Both the position numbers and the translations under genes were made by a program. The notes under the pieces were generated by a model. It was not told the origin of the DNA and searched no databases. It saw only the letters and a list, made by a program, of their open reading frames with translations. This document shows positions 18,643 through 31,110 of a stretch of DNA of 64,000 bases, in pieces. The stretch lies in assembly GCF_009931435.1 (NCBI RefSeq), contig NZ_CP043414.1, one strand, 5' to 3'. Each line of letters opens with the position of its first letter. Position 1 is the stretch's first letter. Source of the DNA: Escherichia coli (GTDB lineage Bacteria; Pseudomonadota; Gammaproteobacteria; Enterobacterales; Enterobacteriaceae).

Positions 18643-18846
18643 ATGTTTGGTAACTTAGGACAGGCAAAAAAATATCTCGGCCAGGCGGCGAAGATGTTGA
18701 TTGGCATTCCAGACTACGACAACTACGTCGAGCATATGAAGACCAACCATCCCGACAAGCCGTACATGAGCTATGAAGAATTCTTCCGCGAACGCCAGAA
18801 CGCGCGCTACGGCGGCGATGGTAAAGGCGGTATGCGCTGTTGTTAA
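18643..18846 (+). CDS. yjiX: Small protein YjiX (DUF466)
   Basis: 67-aa ORF directly downstream of the cstA-family gene, the conserved pairing. Confidence 0.8.
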
Positions 18847-18856
18847 TGGAGAGAGC

Positions 18857-19813
18857 ATGAACCCGATTGCAGTTACCCTACTCACCGGTTTTTTAGGCGC
18901 AGGCAAAACCACCCTGCTGCGCCATATTCTTAATGAACAGCACGGCTACAAGATTGCCGTGATTGAAAACGAATTCGGCGAAGTCTCCGTTGATGATCAA
19001 CTGATTGGCGACCGCGCCACGCAGATCAAAACGCTGACCAACGGCTGCATCTGTTGTTCGCGCTCCAACGAGCTGGAGGACGCGCTACTCGACCTGCTGG
19101 ATAATCTCGACAAGGGCAATATTCAGTTCGATCGTCTGGTCATTGAATGCACCGGCATGGCCGATCCCGGCCCGATTATTCAGACCTTTTTCTCCCATGA
19201 GATTTTATGCCAGCGTTACCTGCTGGACGGCGTGATTGCGCTGGTGGATGCGGTACATGCCGATGAGCAGATGAACCAGTTCACCATCGCCCAGTCACAG
19301 GTTGGCTACGCCGACCGCATTCTGCTGACCAAAACCGACGTCGCAGGCGAAGCAGAAAAACTGCGTGAACGCCTGGCACGCATCAACGCCCGCGCACCGG
19401 TCTACACCGTCACCCACGGCGACATCGATCTGGGCCTGCTGTTCAACACCAACGGTTTTATGCTGGAAGAAAACGTCGTCAGCACCAAACCGCGTTTCCA
19501 CTTTATCGCGGATAAACAAAACGATATTTCGTCGATTGTGGTAGAACTGGATTACCCGGTAGATATCAGCGAAGTTTCCCGCGTGATGGAAAACCTGCTG
19601 CTGGAGTCGGCGGATAAACTGCTGCGTTACAAAGGGATGCTATGGATTGACGGCGAACCAAATCGCCTGCTGTTCCAGGGCGTCCAGCGCCTCTACAGCG
19701 CCGACTGGGACCGCCCGTGGGGCGATGAAAAACCGCATAGCACGATGGTGTTTATCGGGATTCAGCTGCCGGAGGAAGAGATTCGGGCTGCGTTTGCGGG
19801 GTTGAGGAAGTAA
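18857..19813 (+). CDS. yjiA: CobW/P47K-family GTPase YjiA
   Basis: Start at MNPIAVTLLTGFLGAGKTTLL (P-loop); 318 aa; ORF-track start at 18773 overlaps yjiX and is rejected. Confidence 0.9.
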   Translation: MNPIAVTLLTGFLGAGKTTLLRHILNEQHGYKIAVIENEFGEVSVDDQLIGDRATQIKTLTNGCICCSRSNELEDALLDLLDNLDKGNIQFDRLVIECTGMADPGPIIQTFFSHEILCQRYLLDGVIALVDAVHADEQMNQFTIAQSQVGYADRILLTKTDVAGEAEKLRERLARINARAPVYTVTHGDIDLGLLFNTNGFMLEENVVSTKPRFHFIADKQNDISSIVVELDYPVDISEVSRVMENLLLESADKLLRYKGMLWIDGEPNRLLFQGVQRLYSADWDRPWGDEKPHSTMVFIGIQLPEEEIRAAFAGLRK

Positions 19814-19878: not shown

Positions 19879-20628
19879 TTATGAAACATCACGAAATACA
19901 CAGGTAAGTTCTTTAGGACTTGCTTTCCATATATGGTCAAAGCCACTCGACAGCATGACTTCTATTTTTCCTTCCGGACTTTCAATTAGTAAATAGCGAT
20001 CATGGCAGTTTGTATATTTGGGATTTGTAGTGATTTGCACACTCCATTCAGGATGGATACAATGAACAAAATTACTATTTATTTTACTTCCGTTTTGGAC
20101 TGCAGCGACACCTACTGCGATTTCTGAAAATTCAATAACAAGCTCTTTTCTAGGTAGTACGGAATGAAATAAGCTGCATGTATTCTCCCAATTCTGTGCA
20201 AAGTAATTATCGCATATAATTACTTTTTTTGCATTGCAACATAGCATTTCCAGATACTTTTTTAAATATATTCTATTATCTGTAGGGCTTAATGTAACGG
20301 TAACTTGATTATTAACCATACCTTTTTTATAATGTACAAAGGGAAGTGATAAATTATCATTCTCAGTAAGGATTATTTTCAACAACGATTTAGATGCTAA
20401 AGTAACAAGATCATCATCACTTTCAGGCTGACTTGCTAACATAGATAAATATTGTCGATATTCTAACTCCGGCATCTTCAATCCTAAATTTCTTGCCTCA
20501 ATCCATTGCCTTTTGTTAGTTAAATAAGGTAGTACTAGTTTTTTATGTAATCTCTTCACCTTATTCTTATCATCCATATTTTCATATGCAACTAATAAAG
20601 ATGTATCAAGAACCATTTGATAAGACAT
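19879..20628 (-). CDS. Hypothetical 249-aa protein, third gene of the DUF262-ATPase operon (candidate effector)
   Basis: ATG at 20628 lies 4 nt after the ATPase stop with GAGG RBS inside the upstream gene; AT-rich; no motif I can assign. Confidence 0.6.
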   Translation of the reverse strand: MSYQMVLDTSLLVAYENMDDKNKVKRLHKKLVLPYLTNKRQWIEARNLGLKMPELEYRQYLSMLASQPESDDDLVTLASKSLLKIILTENDNLSLPFVHYKKGMVNNQVTVTLSPTDNRIYLKKYLEMLCCNAKKVIICDNYFAQNWENTCSLFHSVLPRKELVIEFSEIAVGVAAVQNGSKINSNFVHCIHPEWSVQITTNPKYTNCHDRYLLIESPEGKIEVMLSSGFDHIWKASPKELTCVFRDVS

Positions 20629-20632
20629 TTCT

Positions 20633-21682
20633 TTACCTCATCTTCATCAAATCATCTAAGGTTGCATCAAAAAAACCTAAAGGGAATCCCGTAACATTCT
20701 CTTGCAGATCGGTAAATTTCCCACCTTCATTAACTCTCATCGAGATAAAATCTTTATCCACATCAGGTTTATAATGTACAGAAATATCCTCAGAAGTTAT
20801 AACATCTTCATAAACCAAATACGCAAGTTTATTGATTAAATGTTCACAATGCGTTTCTACAATAATCTGGATACCCTTACTTGCTACAAATGCTAAAAAA
20901 ATTGCCAAATGAGACTGCGCTTTCGGATGCAATTGAATTTCGGGATTTTCTAGCAAAATAAGATCGCCTTTTTTTGCCATCAAACAAATAATCAAAACCT
21001 TTGCAATATAACTCATCCCAGCCCCAAGATTAAGAGGAGAAACATTTCCTTCAAGCTCTTTTAAGGTAAAAGCGACCTTAATCTGGTCACCAACTTTTTC
21101 AGTAACTAATTCAGACGTCGTTCCTGTAATCAGTTTCAACCAATAAGATAATTGATATGCAAGTGTTGTAGATTCGTGAACTTTCACCAGATATTCAGGT
21201 ACTGGCAAATGTTTCATTTTATCAAATGTTGAAAACAAGAATTCTCCTGCAACACCTACTCGACGTTCTGCGGTGGGCACAAATTCTTGTGCCCCCAAGC
21301 GGTTGGCATTCAGATAGAGCAACTCAGGTTCACTACCAGGCACTCTTGGCTCGTATTGATATCCCAGACGACTATCAATTTCGATATTTTCTGAGTTGAG
21401 CGTTAACGAATGAGAATTTTTTTCTGTATCCTGGACTGTTATAACAATAGATTTTGCGTTATTTTTTTTATTTCTAATAACAGGAAAATCAGCTAGAAAT
21501 CGGATAACTTCTTCCATACTATACTGATTAACAGAAGCGCTATTTTTAATTAGTAACATCAATGCCTGAATAACGCTGGATTTACCAGAAGAGTTAGTTC
21601 CAGTTAAAATGGTCAGTGGTGATAACACCAGACTTGTTGAGCCTAAACTTTTAAATCCTTGAATGTTAATATTTGTAAGCAT
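20633..21682 (-). CDS. P-loop ATPase (ABC/AAA_21-like), second gene of the DUF262-ATPase operon
   Basis: Walker A GTNSSGKSS near N-terminus; Walker B-like DLILLENPEIQLHP; start overlaps upstream gene by 17 nt. Confidence 0.75.
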   Translation of the reverse strand: MLTNINIQGFKSLGSTSLVLSPLTILTGTNSSGKSSVIQALMLLIKNSASVNQYSMEEVIRFLADFPVIRNKKNNAKSIVITVQDTEKNSHSLTLNSENIEIDSRLGYQYEPRVPGSEPELLYLNANRLGAQEFVPTAERRVGVAGEFLFSTFDKMKHLPVPEYLVKVHESTTLAYQLSYWLKLITGTTSELVTEKVGDQIKVAFTLKELEGNVSPLNLGAGMSYIAKVLIICLMAKKGDLILLENPEIQLHPKAQSHLAIFLAFVASKGIQIIVETHCEHLINKLAYLVYEDVITSEDISVHYKPDVDKDFISMRVNEGGKFTDLQENVTGFPLGFFDATLDDLMKMR

Positions 21683-22796
21683 TTTTAATCCTTTCCATTA
21701 TTTCCTTCGCAAAATCAAAACGCATATTTACATATTGTGTTGTATCAATTGCACCAGAAAAAATACCAATCTCATCAAAATTATACTTGTATTGTTCAAT
21801 AAGCTGTTTTAATTCAATATTTTTTGATAAAAATTCAAAACTTATCTGACTGAATACCATAACTAACACTTCGAATAATCCCATATTCACTGGTCGCCTT
21901 TTAGCACCTGATTTTGTTGAAAATCTAAATGCTTCTGAACCCAACGCTTTATAGACATTAGTCATACCAGTTATACAAGCATCTTCAACTTCTTCCAGTA
22001 ACTCATCATCAGCTTTTGTATTAATGAATTTCATCGCAGATGCTAAAAAAGCATCAATATCAGACCTAAATTCAACACCTGGCATTTGATTTGTTACAAG
22101 CAAATAAAATCCTACGAACCGCAAAACCAGATATCTGTCTCGCATACGCTCAGATTTTACGCCATTACCTGTTGCAAGCCTGAAAGACTCGTGTTCAGCG
22201 AGATCCTTAATTAACTTTGTGGCCTTGCCTTGATAAAGAGCATGCCGCATTTCCTGTTTATTTAGATTAATACCACTTCGATTTACACGCTCAAAAATAT
22301 TAAATTTCACATATTCAGGTGTTGGGGGTTGAATCACATAAGAATGTAACTGGCAATCTTCAAGCTTTGCTTGTAATAATGGAGGAATATCAGAAAATTT
22401 TTTTCCTCTCAAGTCAGGCAACATAGATAAATCAGTTAAAGAAAATTCATTGTTAACATAGCGTTTCAATGCAGATATTCGTTGTTTGCCATCAATGATT
22501 TGCCTGACACCATTTTCATCCTCAAAAAGATAAATTAATGGAATAGGAATCCCCATTAAAATAGATTCAATTAATTCTGACTGGTGTTTTCTATCCCAGA
22601 CAAGTTTACGCTGAAAATCTGGAGCAAGAACCAGTTGCCCACGAGCTTCGCGACGGAGTAATTCGAAAACACTGGATTGCTCTTTTGCAATTCGAACCTC
22701 AGTATCTGTCCCCATTTGATGCGGATGAGATGTTAACTCAAGCTCTTCTTGATCTTCGAGTTCAATGCTGTCGTTTTCTACATCCGCATTACTCAT
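21666..22796 (-). CDS. DUF262 (ParB/Srx-like) domain protein, first gene of the three-gene operon
   Basis: DUF262 motifs in order: PDFQRKLVW, IIDGKQR (DGQQR-type), NIFERVNRSGINLNKQE; acidic N-terminus; ATG at 22796. Confidence 0.8.
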   Translation of the reverse strand: MSNADVENDSIELEDQEELELTSHPHQMGTDTEVRIAKEQSSVFELLRREARGQLVLAPDFQRKLVWDRKHQSELIESILMGIPIPLIYLFEDENGVRQIIDGKQRISALKRYVNNEFSLTDLSMLPDLRGKKFSDIPPLLQAKLEDCQLHSYVIQPPTPEYVKFNIFERVNRSGINLNKQEMRHALYQGKATKLIKDLAEHESFRLATGNGVKSERMRDRYLVLRFVGFYLLVTNQMPGVEFRSDIDAFLASAMKFINTKADDELLEEVEDACITGMTNVYKALGSEAFRFSTKSGAKRRPVNMGLFEVLVMVFSQISFEFLSKNIELKQLIEQYKYNFDEIGIFSGAIDTTQYVNMRFDFAKEIMERIKNAYKY

Positions 22797-23036: not shown

Positions 23037-25469
23037 ATGGCGGAACTGAACCTAAGTAACCTGACGGAAGCAGACATCATTACCAAATGCGTTATGCCAG
23101 CCATTCTCAATGCAGGCTGGGACAACACAACGCAAATCAGACAGGAGGTCAAACTCCGGGACGGTAAAGTCATCGTACGTGGTAAAGTTGCGGCACGCAG
23201 AACGGTAAAATCTGCTGACATCGTGCTGTATCACAAACCAGGCATTCCCTTAGCCGTGATTGAAGCAAAAGCCAACAAACATGAAATTGGCAAAGGGATG
23301 CAACAGGGCATTGAATATGCGCGCCTGCTGGACGTTCCTTTTGTTTTTGCCACCAACGGGGATGGCTTTATCTTCCGCGATGCCACCGCAGCCGAAGGTG
23401 AATGCCTTGAAAAGCAAATAACGCTGGATGACTTCCCCTCCCCCGCTGAACTCTGGCAAAAATTCTGCCTCTGGAAAGGATACACACAAGCTCAGCTTCC
23501 GGTGATTACTCAGGACTATTACGACGATGGCAGCGGTAAATCGCCACGTTATTACCAGCTTCAGGCAATCAACAAAACCATTGAAGCCGTCTCCAACGGG
23601 CAAAACCGCGTTCTGTTGGTCATGGCGACCGGAACAGGGAAAACCTATACCGCATTCCAGATCATCTGGCGCCTGTGGAAATCAAAAAATAAAAAACGCA
23701 TTCTGTTCCTTGCCGATCGCAACATTCTGGTCGACCAAACCAAAAATAATGATTTCCAGCCATTTGGTACGGCAATGACCAAAGTCAGCGGACGCACCAT
23801 TGATCCCGCTTATGAAATTCACCTCGCGCTCTATCAGGCTATAACTGGCCCGGAGGAAGACCAAAAAGCGTTTAAACAAGTCGCACCAGATTTCTTCGAT
23901 CTGATAGTCATCGACGAATGCCATCGCGGCAGCGCATCCGAAGACAGCGCCTGGCGAGAGATCCTTGATTATTTCAGTTCCGCCACCCAAATTGGCTTAA
24001 CCGCCACGCCAAAAGAGACGCATGAAGTCTCCAGCACGGATTACTTCGGCGATCCGGTTTACGTCTACTCGCTAAAAGAAGGGATCGAAGACGGCTTCCT
24101 CGCCCCTTATAAAGTTGTCCGTGTTGATATTGATGTTGATCTGCAAGGCTGGCGCCCAACCAAAGGGCAAACTGACTTAAACGGCGAAGTGATCGACGAT
24201 CGTATCTATAACCAGAAAGATTTCGATCGCACGATGGTAATCGACGAACGCACAGAACTGGTTGCCAGAACCATTACCGACTACCTCAAGCGCACCAATC
24301 CGATGGATAAAACCATCGTCTTCTGTAACGACATCGATCATGCAGAACGTATGCGCCGCGCCCTGGTTAATCTCAACTCGGAGCAGGTGAAAAAGAACGA
24401 CAAATACGTCATGAAAATCACCGGCGATGATGAAATTGGCAAAGCTCAGTTGGATAACTTCATCAACCCGAAAAAACCGTACCCGGTTATCGCGACCACT
24501 TCAGAGCTGATGACCACCGGTGTGGATGCTAAAACCTGCAAACTGGTAGTACTGGACCAGAACATCCAGTCGATGACCAAATTCAAGCAGATTATCGGTC
24601 GTGGTACACGCATCGACGAACGTTACGGCAAACTCTGGTTTACCATCCTCGACTTTAAAAAAGCCACCGAACTGTTTGCCGATGAGCGTTTCGATGGCAT
24701 TCCCGAAAAAGTCATGGATACCACACCAGAGGATATCACCGATCCAGAATCTGATTTTGAAGAGAAACTCGAAGAAATCAGCGAACATGACGACGAACAG
24801 GTAACGGGCGTTGATGAACCGCCTGCGCCACCATACCAGGTTACCGATACCGATGATGTCGGCCCACTTCCGGAAGAAGACGAGAAGAAAATCCGCAAGT
24901 TTCACGTCAACGGTGTCGCGGTGGGCGTTATTGCGCAGCGTGTTCAGTATTACGATGCCGACGGTAAACTGGTTACCGAATCTTTTAAAGATTACACCCG
25001 CAAAACACTGCTCAAAGAATATGCCTCGCTGGATGACTTTACCCGCAAGTGGCAGGACGCCGATCGCAAAGAAGCGATCATTCACGAGCTGGAGCAACAG
25101 GGGATCATCTGGGAAGTACTGGCAGAAGAAGTCGGTAAAGATCTCGACCCGTTCGACATGCTTTGCCACGTAGTGTATGGTCAGCCGCCGTTAACCCGCA
25201 AAGAGCGCGCCGAGAACGTGCGCAAGCGGAACTACTTCACAAAATACTCTGAAGCAGCGCAAGCCGTGCTCGATAATCTGCTGGATAAATACGCCGATGC
25301 GGGCGTACAGGAGATCGAAAGTATTCAGGTGCTGAAACTTAAACCATTCGACAGCATGGGCACTTTACCGGAGATTATTAAAACCGGATTTGGCGACCGT
25401 AACGGGTATAATCAGGCGCTCAGCGAGCTGGAAAACGAAATCTACCAATTACCGCCCCGCTCTGCTTAA
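23037..25469 (+). CDS. hsdR: Type I restriction enzyme R subunit (HsdR), non-K-12 family (likely IB-like)
   Basis: 810 aa; N-terminal HsdR nuclease region; helicase motif [11 protein letters not shown] and motif [10 protein letters not shown]; hsdR-hsdM-hsdS order. Confidence 0.9.
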
Positions 25470-25499
25470 CAACTCTCTTTTGCGCCTTCTGCAACCATC

Positions 25500-27005
25500 A
25501 TGTTGCAGAAGGCCTTGTTTTTCATGGAATACAACATGTCTATCAGCTCAGTAATCAAATCATTACAAGATATTATGCGCAAAGATGCCGGTGTGGATGG
25601 CGATGCGCAGCGTCTCGGTCAGCTCTCCTGGCTGCTGTTTTTGAAAATCTTCGATGCCCAGGAAGAGGCGCTGGAACTGGAGCAGGATAACTATCAATAT
25701 CCGATCCCACAGCGTTATTTGTGGCGCAGTTGGGCCGCCAACGCGCAGGGCATTACCGGTGATTCCCTGCTGGAATTCGTTAATGATGATCTGTTCCCGG
25801 CGTTGAAAAACCTCACTGCGCCTATCGATAAAAACCCACGCGGCTACGTGGTGAAGCAGGCGTTCAGCGATGCCTATAACTATATGAAAAACGGTACGCT
25901 ACTGCGTCAGGTGATCAACAAGCTGAACGAAATTGACTTTACCAGCGCCAGCGAACGCCATCTGTTTGGTGATATTTACGAACAGATCCTTAAAGATCTG
26001 CAATCTGCGGGCAATGCTGGCGAATTCTATACTCCACGCGCCGTCACTCGCTTTATGGTGGATCGCGTTGATCCGAAACTCGGCGAATCCATTATGGACC
26101 CGGCCTGCGGTACGGGCGGTTTTCTTGCCTGCGCATTTGATCATGTAAAGAACAAATACGTGAAGAGCGTCGCCGATCATCAGACTCTGCAACAACAGAT
26201 CCACGGTGTCGAGAAAAAACAGCTTCCGCACCTGCTGGCGACCACCAATATGCTGCTGCACGGCATTGAAGTACCGGTACAAATTCGTCACGACAACACC
26301 CTGAATAAACCGCTTTCCTCCTGGGATGAGCAACTGGATGTGATTGTTACCAACCCGCCATTTGGTGGCACGGAAGAAGACGGTATTGAGAAGAACTTTC
26401 CGGCAGAGATGCAAACCCGCGAAACGGCGGATCTGTTCCTGCAACTGATTGTGGAAGTACTGGCGAAAAACGGTCGCGCGGCGGTGGTATTGCCGGATGG
26501 CACACTATTTGGCGAAGGCGTTAAAACCAAAATCAAAAAACTGCTTACCGAAGAGTGCAACCTGCATACCATCGTGCGTTTACCGAATGGGGTGTTTAAC
26601 CCCTATACCGGCATTAAAACCAACCTGTTGTTCTTTACCAAAGGTCAGCCAACCAAAGAGATTTGGTTCTATGAGCATCCGTATCCGGCGGGCGTGAAAA
26701 ATTACAGTAAAACCAAGCCGATGAAGTTTGAAGAGTTTCAGGCGGAGATCGACTGGTGGGGGAACGAGGCCGATGGTTTTGCCAGCCGCGTCGAGAATGA
26801 GCAGGCGTGGAAAGTCAGCATTGATGACGTGATTGCGCGTAACTTCAATCTGGATATTAAAAACCCACATCAGGCGGAAACCGTTAGCCATGATCCGGAC
26901 GAGCTGTTAGCGCAGTATGCAAAGCAGCAGGCGGAGATCCAGACGCTGCGTAATCAACTGCGCGATATTCTTGGCGCTGCGCTGTCTGGCAAGGAGGTTA
27001 ACTGA
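25500..27005 (+). CDS. hsdM: Type I restriction-modification N6-adenine methyltransferase subunit (HsdM)
   Basis: AdoMet motif DPACGTGGFL and catalytic NPPFGG; alternative starts at 25524 or 25536; stop overlaps hsdS start by 1 nt. Confidence 0.9.
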   Translation: MLQKALFFMEYNMSISSVIKSLQDIMRKDAGVDGDAQRLGQLSWLLFLKIFDAQEEALELEQDNYQYPIPQRYLWRSWAANAQGITGDSLLEFVNDDLFPALKNLTAPIDKNPRGYVVKQAFSDAYNYMKNGTLLRQVINKLNEIDFTSASERHLFGDIYEQILKDLQSAGNAGEFYTPRAVTRFMVDRVDPKLGESIMDPACGTGGFLACAFDHVKNKYVKSVADHQTLQQQIHGVEKKQLPHLLATTNMLLHGIEVPVQIRHDNTLNKPLSSWDEQLDVIVTNPPFGGTEEDGIEKNFPAEMQTRETADLFLQLIVEVLAKNGRAAVVLPDGTLFGEGVKTKIKKLLTEECNLHTIVRLPNGVFNPYTGIKTNLLFFTKGQPTKEIWFYEHPYPAGVKNYSKTKPMKFEEFQAEIDWWGNEADGFASRVENEQAWKVSIDDVIARNFNLDIKNPHQAETVSHDPDELLAQYAKQQAEIQTLRNQLRDILGAALSGKEVN

Positions 27006-28753
27006 TGAGTGTGGAAAAGCTGATCGTTGATCATATGGAAACCTGGACCTCGGCGTTGCAAACCCGTTCCACCGCCGGGCGCGGCAGTTCCGGAAAAATT
27101 GATTTATATGGCATTAAGAAATTACGTGAGCTGATTCTGGAACTGGCTGTGCGCGGTAAACTGGTGCCGCAGGATCCGAATGATGAACCGGCGTCGGAGC
27201 TGCTGAAGCGTAATGAAGAACGGAAAAAAGAATTAGCGCGCAATAATGGTATGAAAACCACAGCAAGCACTAATATCCATGGAAATGAATATTATATCGA
27301 TACCCCCGAAAAGTGGTCATGGATAAGACTTGGTAATTTAGCTAAATTCATCGATTACCGAGGGAAAACACCACATAAAAAAGAAAATGGTATAAGGCTT
27401 ATAACAGCAAAAAATATCAGAAAGGGCTGTATTGATCTCAATCCAGAAGAATTCATATCTGAAGAAGATTACATATCATGGATGACAAGAGGCTTTCCTA
27501 AATGTGGTGATATTTTATTCACAACTGAAGCACCACTGGGGAATGCAGCGATTATTGATTTAGACGGAAAGTTCGCTCTTGCTCAACGTTCTATCTGTTT
27601 TCAATGGCATACTCCAGAGATAAGCCCTTTTATGCTTATTCAAATCCTGGCGATCCCCTTCCAGTCACAACTAAGTGACAAATCTACAGGCATGACCGCA
27701 ACAGGAATAAAAGCGTCTAAGTTAAAAGAGATCCCTGTTATTTTACCACCTTACCAAGAACAAATACGTATTGTATCCAAAGTACAGGAGTTCATGTCCC
27801 TATGTGACCAACTGGAACAGCAATCCCTGACCACTCTGGACGCACATCAGCAACTGGTTGAAACCCTGTTGGGAACGCTTACAGACAGCCAAAACGCCGA
27901 GGAACTGGCTGAAAACTGGGCGCGTATTAGCGAGCATTTCGACACCCTATTTACCACCGAAGCCAGCGTGGATGCGTTAAAACAGACCATTCTGCAACTG
28001 GCCGTAATGGGCAAACTTGTGCCGCATGATCCGAATGACGAACCAGCCTCTGAACTGCTCAAACGAATTGCGCAGGAAAAAGCTCAACTGGTGAAAGAAG
28101 GAAAAATAAAAAAACAAAAACCGTTGCCGCCGATTAGCGATGAGGAAAAACCTTTTGAACTGCCGGAAGGGTGGGAATGGATTAGACTAGGAAATATTGG
28201 TGAAGTTAAAGGGGGCGGAACCCCAAGTAAAAACAATCCTGATTTTTGGAAAGGTAATATTCCATGGGTTTCACCAAAGGATATGAAGGTTAATTACATC
28301 TCCAAAAGTCAACTAAATATTTCAAAAGAGGCTGTATTGGAGAGTTCAGTACATCTAATTCCTGAAAATAGTCTTATTTTTGTTGTCCGAGGCATGATTT
28401 TAGCCCATACATTCCCCGTAGCAATAACAAAAAAAGAAGTCACTATTAATCAAGATATGAAAGCCATATCAACTAATCAATTAAATACTGATTTTTTAAT
28501 TTACTTACTTAAAGCAAACGAGACTCGAGTAATATGCTTAGTTGACCGCTCCTCTCATGGCACATGTAAACTTGTTTCAGATAAACTTTTCAATTTGGTT
28601 TTACCGTTGCCTCCATTAGAAGAACAATTTCGTATTACAGAACGAATAAATATGCTATTAGCTTATTGTGATAGATTGAAAAATTATATAAATCTAAAAA
28701 AACAAACCCAACTGCACCTTGCAGATGCACTCACTGACGCGGCGATAAACTAA
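27005..28753 (+). CDS. hsdS: Type I restriction-modification specificity subunit (HsdS) with two target-recognition domains
   Basis: 582 aa; duplicated conserved segment LAVRGKLVPQDPNDEPASELLKR / LAVMGKLVPHDPNDEPASELLKR flanking AT-rich variable TRDs. Confidence 0.88.
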   Translation: MSVEKLIVDHMETWTSALQTRSTAGRGSSGKIDLYGIKKLRELILELAVRGKLVPQDPNDEPASELLKRNEERKKELARNNGMKTTASTNIHGNEYYIDTPEKWSWIRLGNLAKFIDYRGKTPHKKENGIRLITAKNIRKGCIDLNPEEFISEEDYISWMTRGFPKCGDILFTTEAPLGNAAIIDLDGKFALAQRSICFQWHTPEISPFMLIQILAIPFQSQLSDKSTGMTATGIKASKLKEIPVILPPYQEQIRIVSKVQEFMSLCDQLEQQSLTTLDAHQQLVETLLGTLTDSQNAEELAENWARISEHFDTLFTTEASVDALKQTILQLAVMGKLVPHDPNDEPASELLKRIAQEKAQLVKEGKIKKQKPLPPISDEEKPFELPEGWEWIRLGNIGEVKGGGTPSKNNPDFWKGNIPWVSPKDMKVNYISKSQLNISKEAVLESSVHLIPENSLIFVVRGMILAHTFPVAITKKEVTINQDMKAISTNQLNTDFLIYLLKANETRVICLVDRSSHGTCKLVSDKLFNLVLPLPPLEEQFRITERINMLLAYCDRLKNYINLKKQTQLHLADALTDAAIN

Positions 28754-28777
28754 TTTTCTCGCCCTCATAAAACCAAT

Positions 28778-28803
28778 AAAGCGGCTAAATAGCCGCTTTA
28801 TTC
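28778..28803 (+). terminator. Rho-independent terminator after hsdS
   Basis: aaagcggct-aaat-agccgcttt hairpin followed by AT-rich tract. Confidence 0.5.
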
Positions 28804-28878
28804 ACATCACCAAAAATTATATTTTACGCTAATTTTCATCTTATTTTCATTAATTTTTAGCTGGACTTTCCCCATATT

Positions 28879-28898
28879 TACTGATGATATGTCCAGGT
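28879..28898. promoter_or_regulatory. Candidate LexA operator (SOS box) upstream of symE
   Basis: tactgatgatatgtccaggt contains CTG-N10-CAG spacing about 75 nt upstream of the symE ATG. Confidence 0.45.
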
Positions 28899-28899
28899 A

Positions 28900-28980
28900 T
28901 TTAGCGCGGTGCGAATGTGCGCCAACACACCCGCACCGCTCATCACAATCCCTATTTCACGAGAATAGTAATCATGACTG
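28900..28980 (-). ncRNA. symR: Putative SymR antisense sRNA (antitoxin of SymE), approximate coordinates
   Basis: Inferred from established symE/SymR arrangement (cis-antisense RNA over the symE 5' UTR and start codon); ends not determinable by eye. Confidence 0.3.
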
Positions 28981-29315
28981 ACACGCATTCTATTGCACAA
29001 CCGTTCGAAGCAGAAGTCTCCCCGGCAAATAACCGTCAATTAACCGTGAGTTATGCGAGCCGCTACCCGGATTACAGCCGTATTCCCGCCATCACTCTGA
29101 AAGGTCAGTGGCTGGAAACCGCCGGTTTTACCACCGGCACGGCGGTAGATGTCAAAGTGATGGAAGGCTGTATTGTCCTCACCGCCCAACCACCCGCCGC
29201 CGAGGAGAGCGAACTGATGCAGTCACTGCGCCAGGTGTGCAAACTGTCAGCGCGTAAACAGAAGCAGGTGCAGGAGTTTATTGGGGTGATTGCCGGTAAA
29301 CAGAAAGTCGCCTGA
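28974..29315 (+). CDS. symE: SOS-induced type I toxin SymE
   Basis: Translation from ATG 28974 ([34 protein letters not shown]..., 113 aa) matches SymE; ORF-track start 28917 rejected. Confidence 0.9.
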
Positions 29316-29361: not shown

Positions 29362-31110
29362 TTATACCAACGCGCTCTCCATCTGTTTTTCAAATGCCTG
29401 ACGGATTAATCCCATAATGTAAGGAAGTTGTGCGAGGTCGCTGAAACCAATTTCTACATCGCCATTGCCCCAGCGCCCAACATTTGTCACATCTTTGGCA
29501 ATACCTTTCGGATCGACCAGTTCATGAAACTGCATATTAAGCGACAATCGCAGTCGGCTTTTTTGCGGCACAACATCAACAAAATTCGTTTCCGCTTTAA
29601 ACGCAATATAGAGCTTCAATACTTCCTGCGTGATCCCTGCGTCCAGGCGCAAAACTTCATCGCTAAGATGATCGAATAACACCCGGCTATGCGAACCATC
29701 AGCAAGAAAAGGATAATCACTCAGGCTGTAACTGGTTTTGTTTTCCGGCTGCCCCCGATAAACAGCTAAAACCTCTTCAGGAAGAGAAGGCGCTTGCCAG
29801 ACCTGAACCGCGAGATCGGCCAGACGATCGGCTCGGGCGTGAATGGCAGCTTCATCCCATTTTTCGCACTGTCCAAGACCGATATTCAAATAAAGCGGGC
29901 TATGCTTAAAGCCGTCTTCAATATCGCGTTTTTCCGCGAAAGGTCTGTCACTGTAGCGGGAGTTATAGCGCGTTAAAGTGAGATTCCCCAACGTATGCAA
30001 CAATTCTTTATGAATACGCTGCCAGTCGCTTCCCAGCTCTTCGCGCCATTTAGCCGACAAATTTTCGTTCTGCGGCATAATGTGCTCAATCGTAAACTCT
30101 TCCACGCGCTCTCTGCGTTTATTGTTTTCCAGTCGTCGTAACCAGTAACTGCGACTGCGGAAGTTATAGAGATCGCGAACTTTTAATTCCCGTTTAAATT
30201 CATCATCGTTGGGGAAACGACGATATGAAGGTAGATTCAGAAAATGTACCTGAATACTTTCCAGATAATTTTCTTTATTAATAACTTTATAAAAAGTGGC
30301 AAACGTCTTGTTAAGAGAATTTGTTGGAATCGCACATACTGCACGGCGGAAAACATAAGATTCAATTAAACGAATTATGCTCAGGAAATCTTCACGAGAC
30401 AAAACGCCATTTTTATAGTCATGATAAAGCGCCAGTAAGAAAGGATACGCCACATCGACTTTTAACTCGCGCAAATCCTGAAAAGCCGTAGCAAGCGATT
30501 TGTCACTTTCTTTTCCCAATGCCATTGCACAGTAATACTCCGCGTAGATGTGAATATCTTCAACCAGCCGATCTACGCCTTTTTCAGCAACACTCTGGCT
30601 ACGGGCATGGAGTTTAAAAGCCTCATAGACTTCATCTGTCCGAGGGATCTCCCCCGTTTTTACCGTCAGATAATGACGCATAAAACTGTCAAAATATTCG
30701 CTGTAACCTTGCTGACCAAAGGCGACTTCCATGGGTCGCCAGTGATCTTCATACAACCGGGTTTGATGCTCTGGTTCGAGACCCATCAGAATAAAATTGC
30801 GCACCAGATCGGCCTGACTTAACGCCTTACCGGTGGAGTTCATACTTTCAAAAATCAGTTGCGGATTATCCTGACCACGATTAAGCGCCACATCGACAAT
30901 TAATAACTTTGCTAACCCACGACATAAGGGGATCAAGTCATCACCGAGTTTGGCAATTTGTTCATCAAAGAAAGTAAAGTTTTCCATTATTCGATGGGAA
31001 TAGTTTTCTGGCATTGGTCTTTGTTTTATTAACGCCAGCAAACTGTCTTTATCAGTCTCGGTAAGCAGTAATTTAAATCCTTTCTCGCCGGACTCATAAG
31101 GATTGAGCAA
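29362..31110 (-). CDS. GmrSD-family-like protein (DUF262 C-terminal portion plus DUF1524/HNH), probably 5'-truncated; candidate type IV restriction remnant
   Basis: C-terminal region has EHIMPQNENLSAKWREELG (DUF1524 His-Me type); N-terminal region has only the distal DUF262 motif (IFESMNSTGKALSQADLVRNF); first in-frame codon is TTG with a stop 8 codons upstream. Confidence 0.6.
   Translation of the reverse strand: MLNPYESGEKGFKLLLTETDKDSLLALIKQRPMPENYSHRIMENFTFFDEQIAKLGDDLIPLCRGLAKLLIVDVALNRGQDNPQLIFESMNSTGKALSQADLVRNFILMGLEPEHQTRLYEDHWRPMEVAFGQQGYSEYFDSFMRHYLTVKTGEIPRTDEVYEAFKLHARSQSVAEKGVDRLVEDIHIYAEYYCAMALGKESDKSLATAFQDLRELKVDVAYPFLLALYHDYKNGVLSREDFLSIIRLIESYVFRRAVCAIPTNSLNKTFATFYKVINKENYLESIQVHFLNLPSYRRFPNDDEFKRELKVRDLYNFRSRSYWLRRLENNKRRERVEEFTIEHIMPQNENLSAKWREELGSDWQRIHKELLHTLGNLTLTRYNSRYSDRPFAEKRDIEDGFKHSPLYLNIGLGQCEKWDEAAIHARADRLADLAVQVWQAPSLPEEVLAVYRGQPENKTSYSLSDYPFLADGSHSRVLFDHLSDEVLRLDAGITQEVLKLYIAFKAETNFVDVVPQKSRLRLSLNMQFHELVDPKGIAKDVTNVGRWGNGDVEIGFSDLAQLPYIMGLIRQAFEKQMESALV

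Follow-up and report, generated by a model that had tools for sequence, protein, structure and literature searches.

Does the duplicated segment inside the hsdS gene of this Escherichia coli locus serve as a substrate for recombination that shuffles or deletes target recognition domains (TRDs), as a first-pass annotation of the sequence had proposed, or is it a fixed part of the protein? We examined this question in the window, the whole 64-kb stretch of DNA analyzed here. The best explanation, to which we give a probability of roughly 90%, is that a type IB operon carries the HsdS duplication characteristic of its family, that TRDs are exchanged between alleles, and that the two copies of the repeat are not an active recombination substrate.

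The hsd operon and its location

The window holds a complete type IB (EcoAI/EcoEI family) hsdR-hsdM-hsdS operon at 23037-28753 on the plus strand. The first gene, hsdR (23037..25469, +), encodes a type IB (EcoAI/EcoEI family) restriction subunit of 810 aa. Residues 9-804 match the NCBIfam equivalog NF046051 restrict_EcoAI with 1193.8 bits (cut-off 550), the protein includes the Pfam domains ResIII and EcoEI_R_C (PF08463, E = 6e-37), and its counterparts in homologous loci are annotated as EcoAI/FtnUII family subunit R. The second gene, hsdM (25536..27005, +), encodes a short type IB methyltransferase subunit of 489 aa with Pfam HsdM_N and N6_Mtase domains; its ORF opens at 25500, and the start given here is the one used in homologous annotated loci (L001-L003). 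The TGA stop of hsdM (27003-27005) and the ATG of hsdS (27005-27007) overlap by 1 nt in the sequence TGATG at 27003-27007. The third gene, hsdS (27005..28753, +), encodes a protein of 582 aa that matches Pfam Methylase_S (PF01420) in two stretches (E = 2.6e-33) and is ordered as conserved region, TRD1, conserved region, TRD2 and short conserved tail.

In type IB systems HsdM is shorter, whereas HsdS is longer and has extra-long conserved regions (PMC3510504). The lengths of HsdM and HsdS, together with an N-terminal conserved region of ~69 aa and a central one of ~124 aa, fit this description. The type IB systems EcoAI, EcoEI and EcoAO83I of E. coli, whose HsdS proteins were described by Kannan et al. 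1989 and in PMC2481252, resemble the operon in their HsdR family, short HsdM, long HsdS and chromosomal site, HsdS being compared by published description. Given the 95-98% DNA identity of the conserved regions to annotated loci, genetic complementation or antibody cross-reactivity with the EcoAI subunits is likely.

The operon sits in the immigration-control region of E. coli, and its surroundings are ~97-98% identical to many E. coli chromosomes. Upstream lie btsT/cstA and yjiA; downstream lie symE/symR, a GmrSD-like gene, yjiS, yjiR, an rpn gene and mdtM. The position between yjiA and yjiS/yjiR is the same site that is occupied by other E. coli hsd loci (cf. PMC3874165), and about 960-976 of 5,426 complete E. 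coli genomes carry the type IB family there. A perfect inverted repeat of 13 nt (28775..28802), terminator-like on both strands, separates hsdS from symE/symR.

Layout and composition of HsdS

The domains of hsdS, all on the plus strand, alternate sharply in base composition. The N-terminal conserved region (27005..27212, residues 1-69; GC 0.507, GC3 0.55) is followed by the TRD1 cassette (27213..27805, residues ~70-267; GC 0.38, GC3 0.30), which carries its own linker, NEERKKELARNNG..., and whose boundaries were set by the drop in identity against the allele of strain N96. Next come the central conserved region (27806..28176, residues ~268-391; GC 0.484, GC3 0.50), the TRD2 cassette (28177..28700, residues ~392-565; GC 0.355, GC3 0.26) and a short C-terminal conserved tail (28701..28753), QTQLHLADALTDAAIN. 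For comparison with the low-GC TRDs, the GC content of the whole window is 0.489. The first-pass annotation had described the TRDs as far more AT-rich than the conserved parts, and these values bear it out. In the N-terminal conserved region the DNA is 95-98% identical to that of other E. coli type IB alleles, and many alignment columns are invariant among 37 homologues.

The two halves of HsdS can be aligned with each other from end to end (BLOSUM62 local score 218), and the alignment takes in the TRD framework motifs PE(K/G)W(S/E)WIRLGN and LPPxxEQxRI. In type IB proteins the order of segments, D2-S1-D1-S2, is a circular permutation of the type IA order S1-D1-S2-D2, and circular permutation of EcoAI HsdS has been explored by experiment (reviewed by Loenen et al., PMC3874165).

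The internal repeat

The duplicated segment is real, lies within a few bases of the position first assigned to it, and is identified here as the HsdS conserved-region repeat. Copy 1 spans 27134..27215 and copy 2 spans 27989..28070, both on the plus strand; they fall at residues 44-70 and 329-355, each just upstream of a low-GC TRD. The copies are direct and in frame, with an offset of 855 nt (285 codons). The peptide LAVRGKLVPQDPNDEPASELLKR (HsdS residues 47-69, 27143-27211) is identical at 21 of 23 residues to LAVMGKLVPHDPNDEPASELLKR (residues 332-354, 27998-28066), and the DNA of the two copies is identical at 64 of 82 nt (78%); the maximum reached in 30 shuffles of hsdS was 43 of 82. A blastn search of the window with hsdS recovered the repeat at E = 3.7e-13 and found no further copy elsewhere in the 64 kb. 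We also tested whether the segments might be unrelated to each other or to HsdS conserved regions, and found them related in both respects.

Between the copies, the 26 codons of residues 44-69 comprise 11 that are identical, 12 that differ only synonymously and 3 that change the amino acid. The longest exact run shared by the copies is 11 nt in the window allele and 9-12 nt in three other alleles.

A longer repeat, of 64 aa (192 nt), is found in most type IB alleles, where it extends from ILELAV... to ...PFELPxGWEW. In alleles other than that of the window the two 64-aa units are identical at 55-56 of 64 residues and at 76-79% of the DNA, and copy 1 is present at its full 192 nt in the alleles N96, strain 144 and P0010. 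The window allele departs from this pattern on the 3' side of copy 1, where the TRD1 cassette begins directly after ...ASELLKR (27213) with a differing linker, NEERKKELARNNGMKTT.... The linker supplied by this cassette truncates copy 1 to about 82 nt, so that about 27 residues remain in place of the usual 64. In copy 2 the family-wide 64-aa unit runs on to about 28180. HsdS proteins of the EcoAI family likewise have a long N-terminal conserved region and a direct repeat whose copies start near residues 50 and 325 (PMC3874165, PMC2481252).

Each copy has residues of its own. The differences E46 versus Q331 and R50 versus M335 are invariant in 37 of 37 aligned homologues from Escherichia, Klebsiella, Serratia, Salmonella and other genera, and because these copy-specific residues are held across enterobacterial genera, we conclude that the copies are not homogenized by gene conversion. 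P0054 (541 aa), a naturally occurring variant, is missing both the loop and the distal helix in copy 2; either this protein is inactive or that stretch can be spared at the central position. The repeat is the characteristic, long-known internal HsdS duplication of the type IB family, ancient and kept by selection on the protein.

The first-pass annotation had further reported the duplication as a minus-strand peptide repeated in two ORFs. Thirteen residues are indeed shared on that strand, but the exact peptide EAGSSFGSCGTSLP occurs only once, at 28009-28050 in copy 2; copy 1 gives DAGSSFGSCGTSLP, beginning DAGSS... where the other begins EAGSS.... The shared residues arise because the wobble position of the antisense frame falls on the wobble position of the sense frame. 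Since this phasing accounts for the repeated peptide, an antisense gene was rejected. A promoter scan gave chance level, with 10 found and 9.9 expected.

Predicted structure and role of the repeat

An AlphaFold2 model of HsdS, of moderate quality overall (mean pLDDT 68.9, pTM 0.48), has a secondary structure of two alpha/beta TRDs flanked by long helices. Model quality is adequate in the TRDs and for assigning the repeat to secondary-structure elements, and poor across much of the central helical region; pLDDT falls below 50 at residues 270-296 and 307-318, and the central helices are too weakly modeled for a fold search. In copy 1 the last part of helix 34-49 is joined by loop 50-62 to the first part of helix 63-79, and in copy 2 the equivalent elements are helix 319-334, loop 335-347 and helix 348-364. 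Each copy is thus modeled as a helix-loop-helix directly before a TRD, with a 13-residue loop, KLVPxDPNDEPAS.

HsdS is built from two homologous halves, in each of which a variable TRD comes after a conserved helical segment. The type IB chain begins inside the second helical region, which leaves one conserved copy at the N-terminus and the other in the center. From the M2S1 architecture, and from the pseudo-two-fold symmetry that HsdS shows, we infer that both copies have an equivalent structural task in their respective halves, that of positioning one TRD, and each probably contacts one of the two HsdM subunits. Such a shared task would account for a protein sequence that stays constant even though synonymous sites have diverged almost to saturation.

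How the extra-long segments first arose is a separate matter. It has been proposed that such segments of type IB HsdS were once the C-terminal end of a type IA/IC HsdM and passed into hsdS by a shift of the hsdM/hsdS boundary (PMC3510504); applied here, the repeat would be included in the segments gained, which would then have been duplicated along with the half-S unit. The short HsdM (489 aa), the long HsdS (582 aa) and the 1-nt overlap of their genes agree with such a shift, and fused M-tail/S-head sequences have been noted to be weakly similar to central conserved regions of some HsdS proteins (PMC3510504). However, a phmmer search of all PDB chains with the 125-residue central conserved region, at E values up to 10, matched no HsdM or HsdS chain, the inclusion of the HsdM chains of EcoKI (2y7c/2y7h) and EcoR124 (7bst) in that set being unconfirmed; it detected no solved structure similar to this region and returned chance matches only. 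We consider a derivation from the HsdM tail possible, with the odds somewhat against it. It concerns the origin of the repeat, and complements the explanation of a family-wide duplication with exchange of TRDs between alleles.

Unlikely recombination between the repeat copies

Direct repeats within a gene invite the suggestion that they recombine with one another. Unequal or intramolecular crossing-over between copy 1 and copy 2 would delete TRD1 and the central region, leaving a half-HsdS with a single TRD, or would duplicate them, and new specificities would result. The geometry allows it, since the copies have the same orientation and reading frame at a distance of 855 nt, and the crossover product would be an open frame of about 297 aa. 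Half-size type IC HsdS proteins that dimerize and recognize palindromes are also known (PMC3874165). However, exact identity between the copies extends over 12 nt at most, and 11 nt in the window allele, and the copy-specific residues fixed across genera give no sign of gene conversion between them. RecA-dependent recombination in E. coli has a minimal processing segment of roughly 23-27 bp. Recombination between the copies is disfavored because the exact runs fall well below this length.

Its products were also missing from the complete E. coli genomes searched. Genomes were searched with a two-block query, consisting of the 3' end of hsdM with the N-terminal region of hsdS and of the C-terminal tail with symE, which joins only if the gene is shorter by at least about 500 nt. 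In none of 5,426 complete E. coli genomes did the hsdM/N-terminal block lie within 1 kb of the C-terminal/symE block; length variants, suggested earlier as something to look for at this locus, were therefore absent as deletion alleles from this set. An artificial copy-1/copy-2 junction did match 951 genomes in one piece, but these matches do not represent deletions, because the 64-aa repeat of most alleles makes the sequence after copy 1 resemble that after copy 2. The split hsdS genes that were found are pseudogenes disrupted by IS elements or frameshifts. ET358 and CP131_Sichuan, each with two hsdS genes, were considered as length variants and rejected, as their genes are fragments of systems disrupted in this way.

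Published work points in the same direction. The described routes to half-size HsdS proteins are truncations, transposon insertion and frameshifts, the unequal crossing-over that has been published involves the 12-bp TAEL repeats of type IC, and the only homodimers of half-HsdS that the review reports belong to type IC (PMC3874165). A search for repeats over 26900-28900 found no type IC-style 12-bp TAEL tandem repeat in the central region, only dispersed repeats. The window hsdS thus differs from EcoR124I/II in lacking such a tandem repeat, its type IB copies being diverged and 855 nt apart. Taking these observations together, we regard crossing-over between the two copies as very improbable.

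More improbable still is a rare, RecA-independent deletion of TRD1 and the central region at short homologies, which would yield a homodimeric, single-TRD type IB HsdS with a palindromic site. To our knowledge, a specificity switch to a single-TRD homodimer has never been documented for type IB. In a milder form of this proposal, the present recombinant allele would encode an uncharacterized specificity, made up of the TRD1 half-site and an RTCG-like half-site.

The repeat might also be thought to belong to a phase-variable hsdS shufflon like SpnD39III, in which one TRD is swapped for another by site-specific recombination or by recombination at inverted repeats. Shufflons of that kind have extra silent hsdS copies, inverted conserved repeats and a nearby recombinase. 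The locus shares with them the presence of repeats inside hsdS and nothing beyond. It has one hsdS, with no silent hsdS fragment detected in the 64-kb window by tblastn and blastn; its repeats are direct, the inverted repeats within hsdS being weak and at chance level; and no recombinase gene was found among the ORFs or by domain scans around the operon. We consider switching of this type scarcely credible here.

Exchange between alleles

The distribution of the TRDs among other strains tells a different story from that of recombination within the gene. TRD1 is 99.3-99.5% identical in only 2 of 5,426 E. coli genomes (GPT24-02 and 06-00048), whose TRD2 is unrelated, and TRD2 is 99.7% identical in only 1 of 5,426 (N96), whose TRD1 is unrelated. 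The whole allele of the window occurs in none of these complete E. coli genomes. In NCBI, the exact HsdS protein is found on 18 contigs under the title 'MULTISPECIES: restriction endonuclease subunit S [Escherichia]'; the protein records EMD6621356.1 and MDO2729833.1 represent this allele. Among the best 120 homologues, a TRD1 of the window's class is found together with 20 TRD2 classes, and 24 TRD1 classes accompany a TRD2 of the window's class.

Two closer relatives from public assemblies allowed the junction to be mapped: L007 (protein P0012), with a TRD1 of the window type, and L008 (protein P0010), with a TRD2 of the window type. The window differs from L007 at 2 positions in 902 nt (27125-28026) and from L008 at 1 position in 870 nt (27884-28753). 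Outside these tracts, it differs from both by ~2% in hsdM and ~5% in the symE region, and the divergence of the tracts is significantly lower than that of the adjacent hsdM (Fisher p = 1e-4 and 4e-6). The last difference from L008 is at 27883 and the first from L007 at 28027, so that the window is identical to both relatives over the 143 nt of 27884..28026 (+), the putative inter-allelic crossover interval. This interval is inside the central conserved region and takes in the first 38 nt of repeat copy 2. L007 and L008 are stand-ins for the parents, and the comparison gives no direction or order of exchanges. The sequence comparisons strongly support the view that the window allele is a natural recombinant of two TRD cassettes known from other strains.

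Exchange of TRDs between alleles proceeds as follows. The conserved regions are 95-98% identical from one allele to another, and so provide the homology for ordinary recombination, which moves the low-GC TRD cassettes (~0.5-0.6 kb) on exchange tracts of ~0.9 kb; the TRD1 and TRD2 cassettes of the window were joined by the putative crossover within 27884-28026. Part of what was first proposed, that these repeats are substrates for TRD shuffling or deletion, is upheld in that conserved regions mediate exchange between alleles, with a crossover at this interval; recombination of copy 1 with copy 2 finds no support, given exact runs of at most 12 nt and fixed differences between the copies.

A close parallel is found in type IA, where StySQ and StySJ, natural and engineered TRD recombinants, also gained a new pairing of TRDs by crossover in the central conserved region. 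The crossover of StySP with StySB that gave StySQ lies within a conserved stretch of 130 nt (PMC3874165), compared to 143 nt for the window allele. They differ from the present case in family (IA rather than IB) and in how the recombinant was recognized, the window recombinant being deduced from natural alleles and theirs from a cross.

Predicted specificity

Type IB targets are bipartite, with 9 bp between the two methylated adenines. The TRDs of the window allele differ from those of EcoAI, EcoEI and EcoAO83I, and so its specificity should differ too. TRD2 has a homologue in the C-terminal TRD of EcoR124II, a type IC protein (7bst_A, E = 2e-32; identity ~39% overall and 48% over the first 100 aligned positions), and it also matches 1yf2_A. 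As the C-terminal TRD of EcoR124II reads CGAY (PMC3874165), a reasonable guess from the alignment is that TRD2 reads a related, RTCG-like 3' half-site. Sharing of TRDs across families, of this same kind, was already noted for TRD1 of StySKI. Matches to TRD1 are weak: the C-terminal TRD of EcoKI (2y7c_A) gives E = 2e-7, and PRK09737 gives 89 bits, far below its cut-off. A TRD1 specificity taken from EcoKI was rejected because the similarity is too weak to be predictive. The window allele probably specifies an uncharacterized methylation motif.

Conclusions

The repeat, the circular permutation of the family and the reassortment of TRDs by way of conserved regions are already known and have been textbook matters since 1989-1998. 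The new details are the TRD1-cassette linker that truncates copy 1, the mosaic pairing of TRDs, and the crossover at 27884-28026. The finding matters little beyond annotation. The allele is rare, with no occurrence among 5,426 complete E. coli genomes and 18 contigs in public data. As an example of natural TRD-cassette exchange the locus is a clean one, with both donor-like alleles identified and the interval of crossover mapped, and in comparisons of the window with its relatives the TRD cassettes show far less divergence than the DNA on either side. A loose statement often made about these genes is corrected as well: the conserved segments of hsdS promote exchange between alleles, not between the copies within a gene.

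Organization of the hsd operon and its flanks

At the junction of hsdM and hsdS the sequence TGATG (27003-27007) joins the two genes, such that the TGA stop codon of hsdM and the ATG start codon of hsdS share one base. The same 1-nt overlap is found in EcoKI, where it is accompanied by translational coupling (PMC3510504). Directly 3' of hsdS lie the toxin gene symE (Pfam SymE_toxin) and symR, the antisense RNA to symE (Rfam RF01809, 88.9 bits), an arrangement shared with E. coli K-12; the pair covers 28903-28979 on the minus strand and about 28974-29315 on the plus strand. Between hsdS and this pair, a perfect 13-bp inverted repeat (28775-28802) bordered on either side by T/A runs resembles a bidirectional terminator.

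Between yjiA (18773-19813) and hsdR lie three genes in the same orientation (19879-22796, minus strand), whose products have 249, 349 and 376 amino acids. All three gave full-length PADLOC matches, to NsnC (2e-71), NsnB (1.5e-78) and NsnA (2e-110), respectively; the NsnB match is an AAA_15/AAA_21 ATPase and the NsnA match a DUF262/GmrSD_N protein. The trio is a candidate defence cassette in the variable slot of the immigration-control region. In two of the homologous E. coli type IB loci, L001 and L003, the slot between yjiA and hsdR holds a hypothetical gene and an antitoxin gene instead.

Downstream, a GmrSD-like ORF (GmrSD_C plus DUF5655; 29362-31110, minus strand) begins with TTG. Because its match to the GmrSD_N profile starts only at position 102 and that to PADLOC Orf5 at profile position 104, and because the homologous gene is intact, at 697 amino acids, in the closer relatives L007 and L008, the window copy is a probable pseudogene, missing some 100-115 residues from its N-terminus. 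The gene is also broken, in different ways, in the type IB loci L001-L003.

Variation among type IB systems

P0054, a natural type IB HsdS of 541 amino acids from another E. coli, has a central repeat copy that stops at ...LAVMGKL and is followed directly by an unrelated TRD2, lacking the VPQDPNDEPASELLKR loop and helix as well as the linker. Either these elements are dispensable at the central position, or the P0054 allele is inactive. The type IB operons of E. coli strains ET358 and CP131_Sichuan are decaying: in one, hsdS is split, an IS3 interrupts hsdM and an IS5 lies upstream of hsdR; in the other, an IS1 sits inside hsdS and hsdM is frameshifted.

Comparison of the window with L001-L003, L007 and L008 showed a divergence between strains of 0.2-0.7% in the TRD cassettes (27213-27805 and 28177-28700), versus 1-5% in the adjacent conserved hsdS, hsdM and symE DNA. 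That the cassettes are so much less diverged than their surroundings suggests that individual TRD cassettes have spread recently across older backbone polymorphism.
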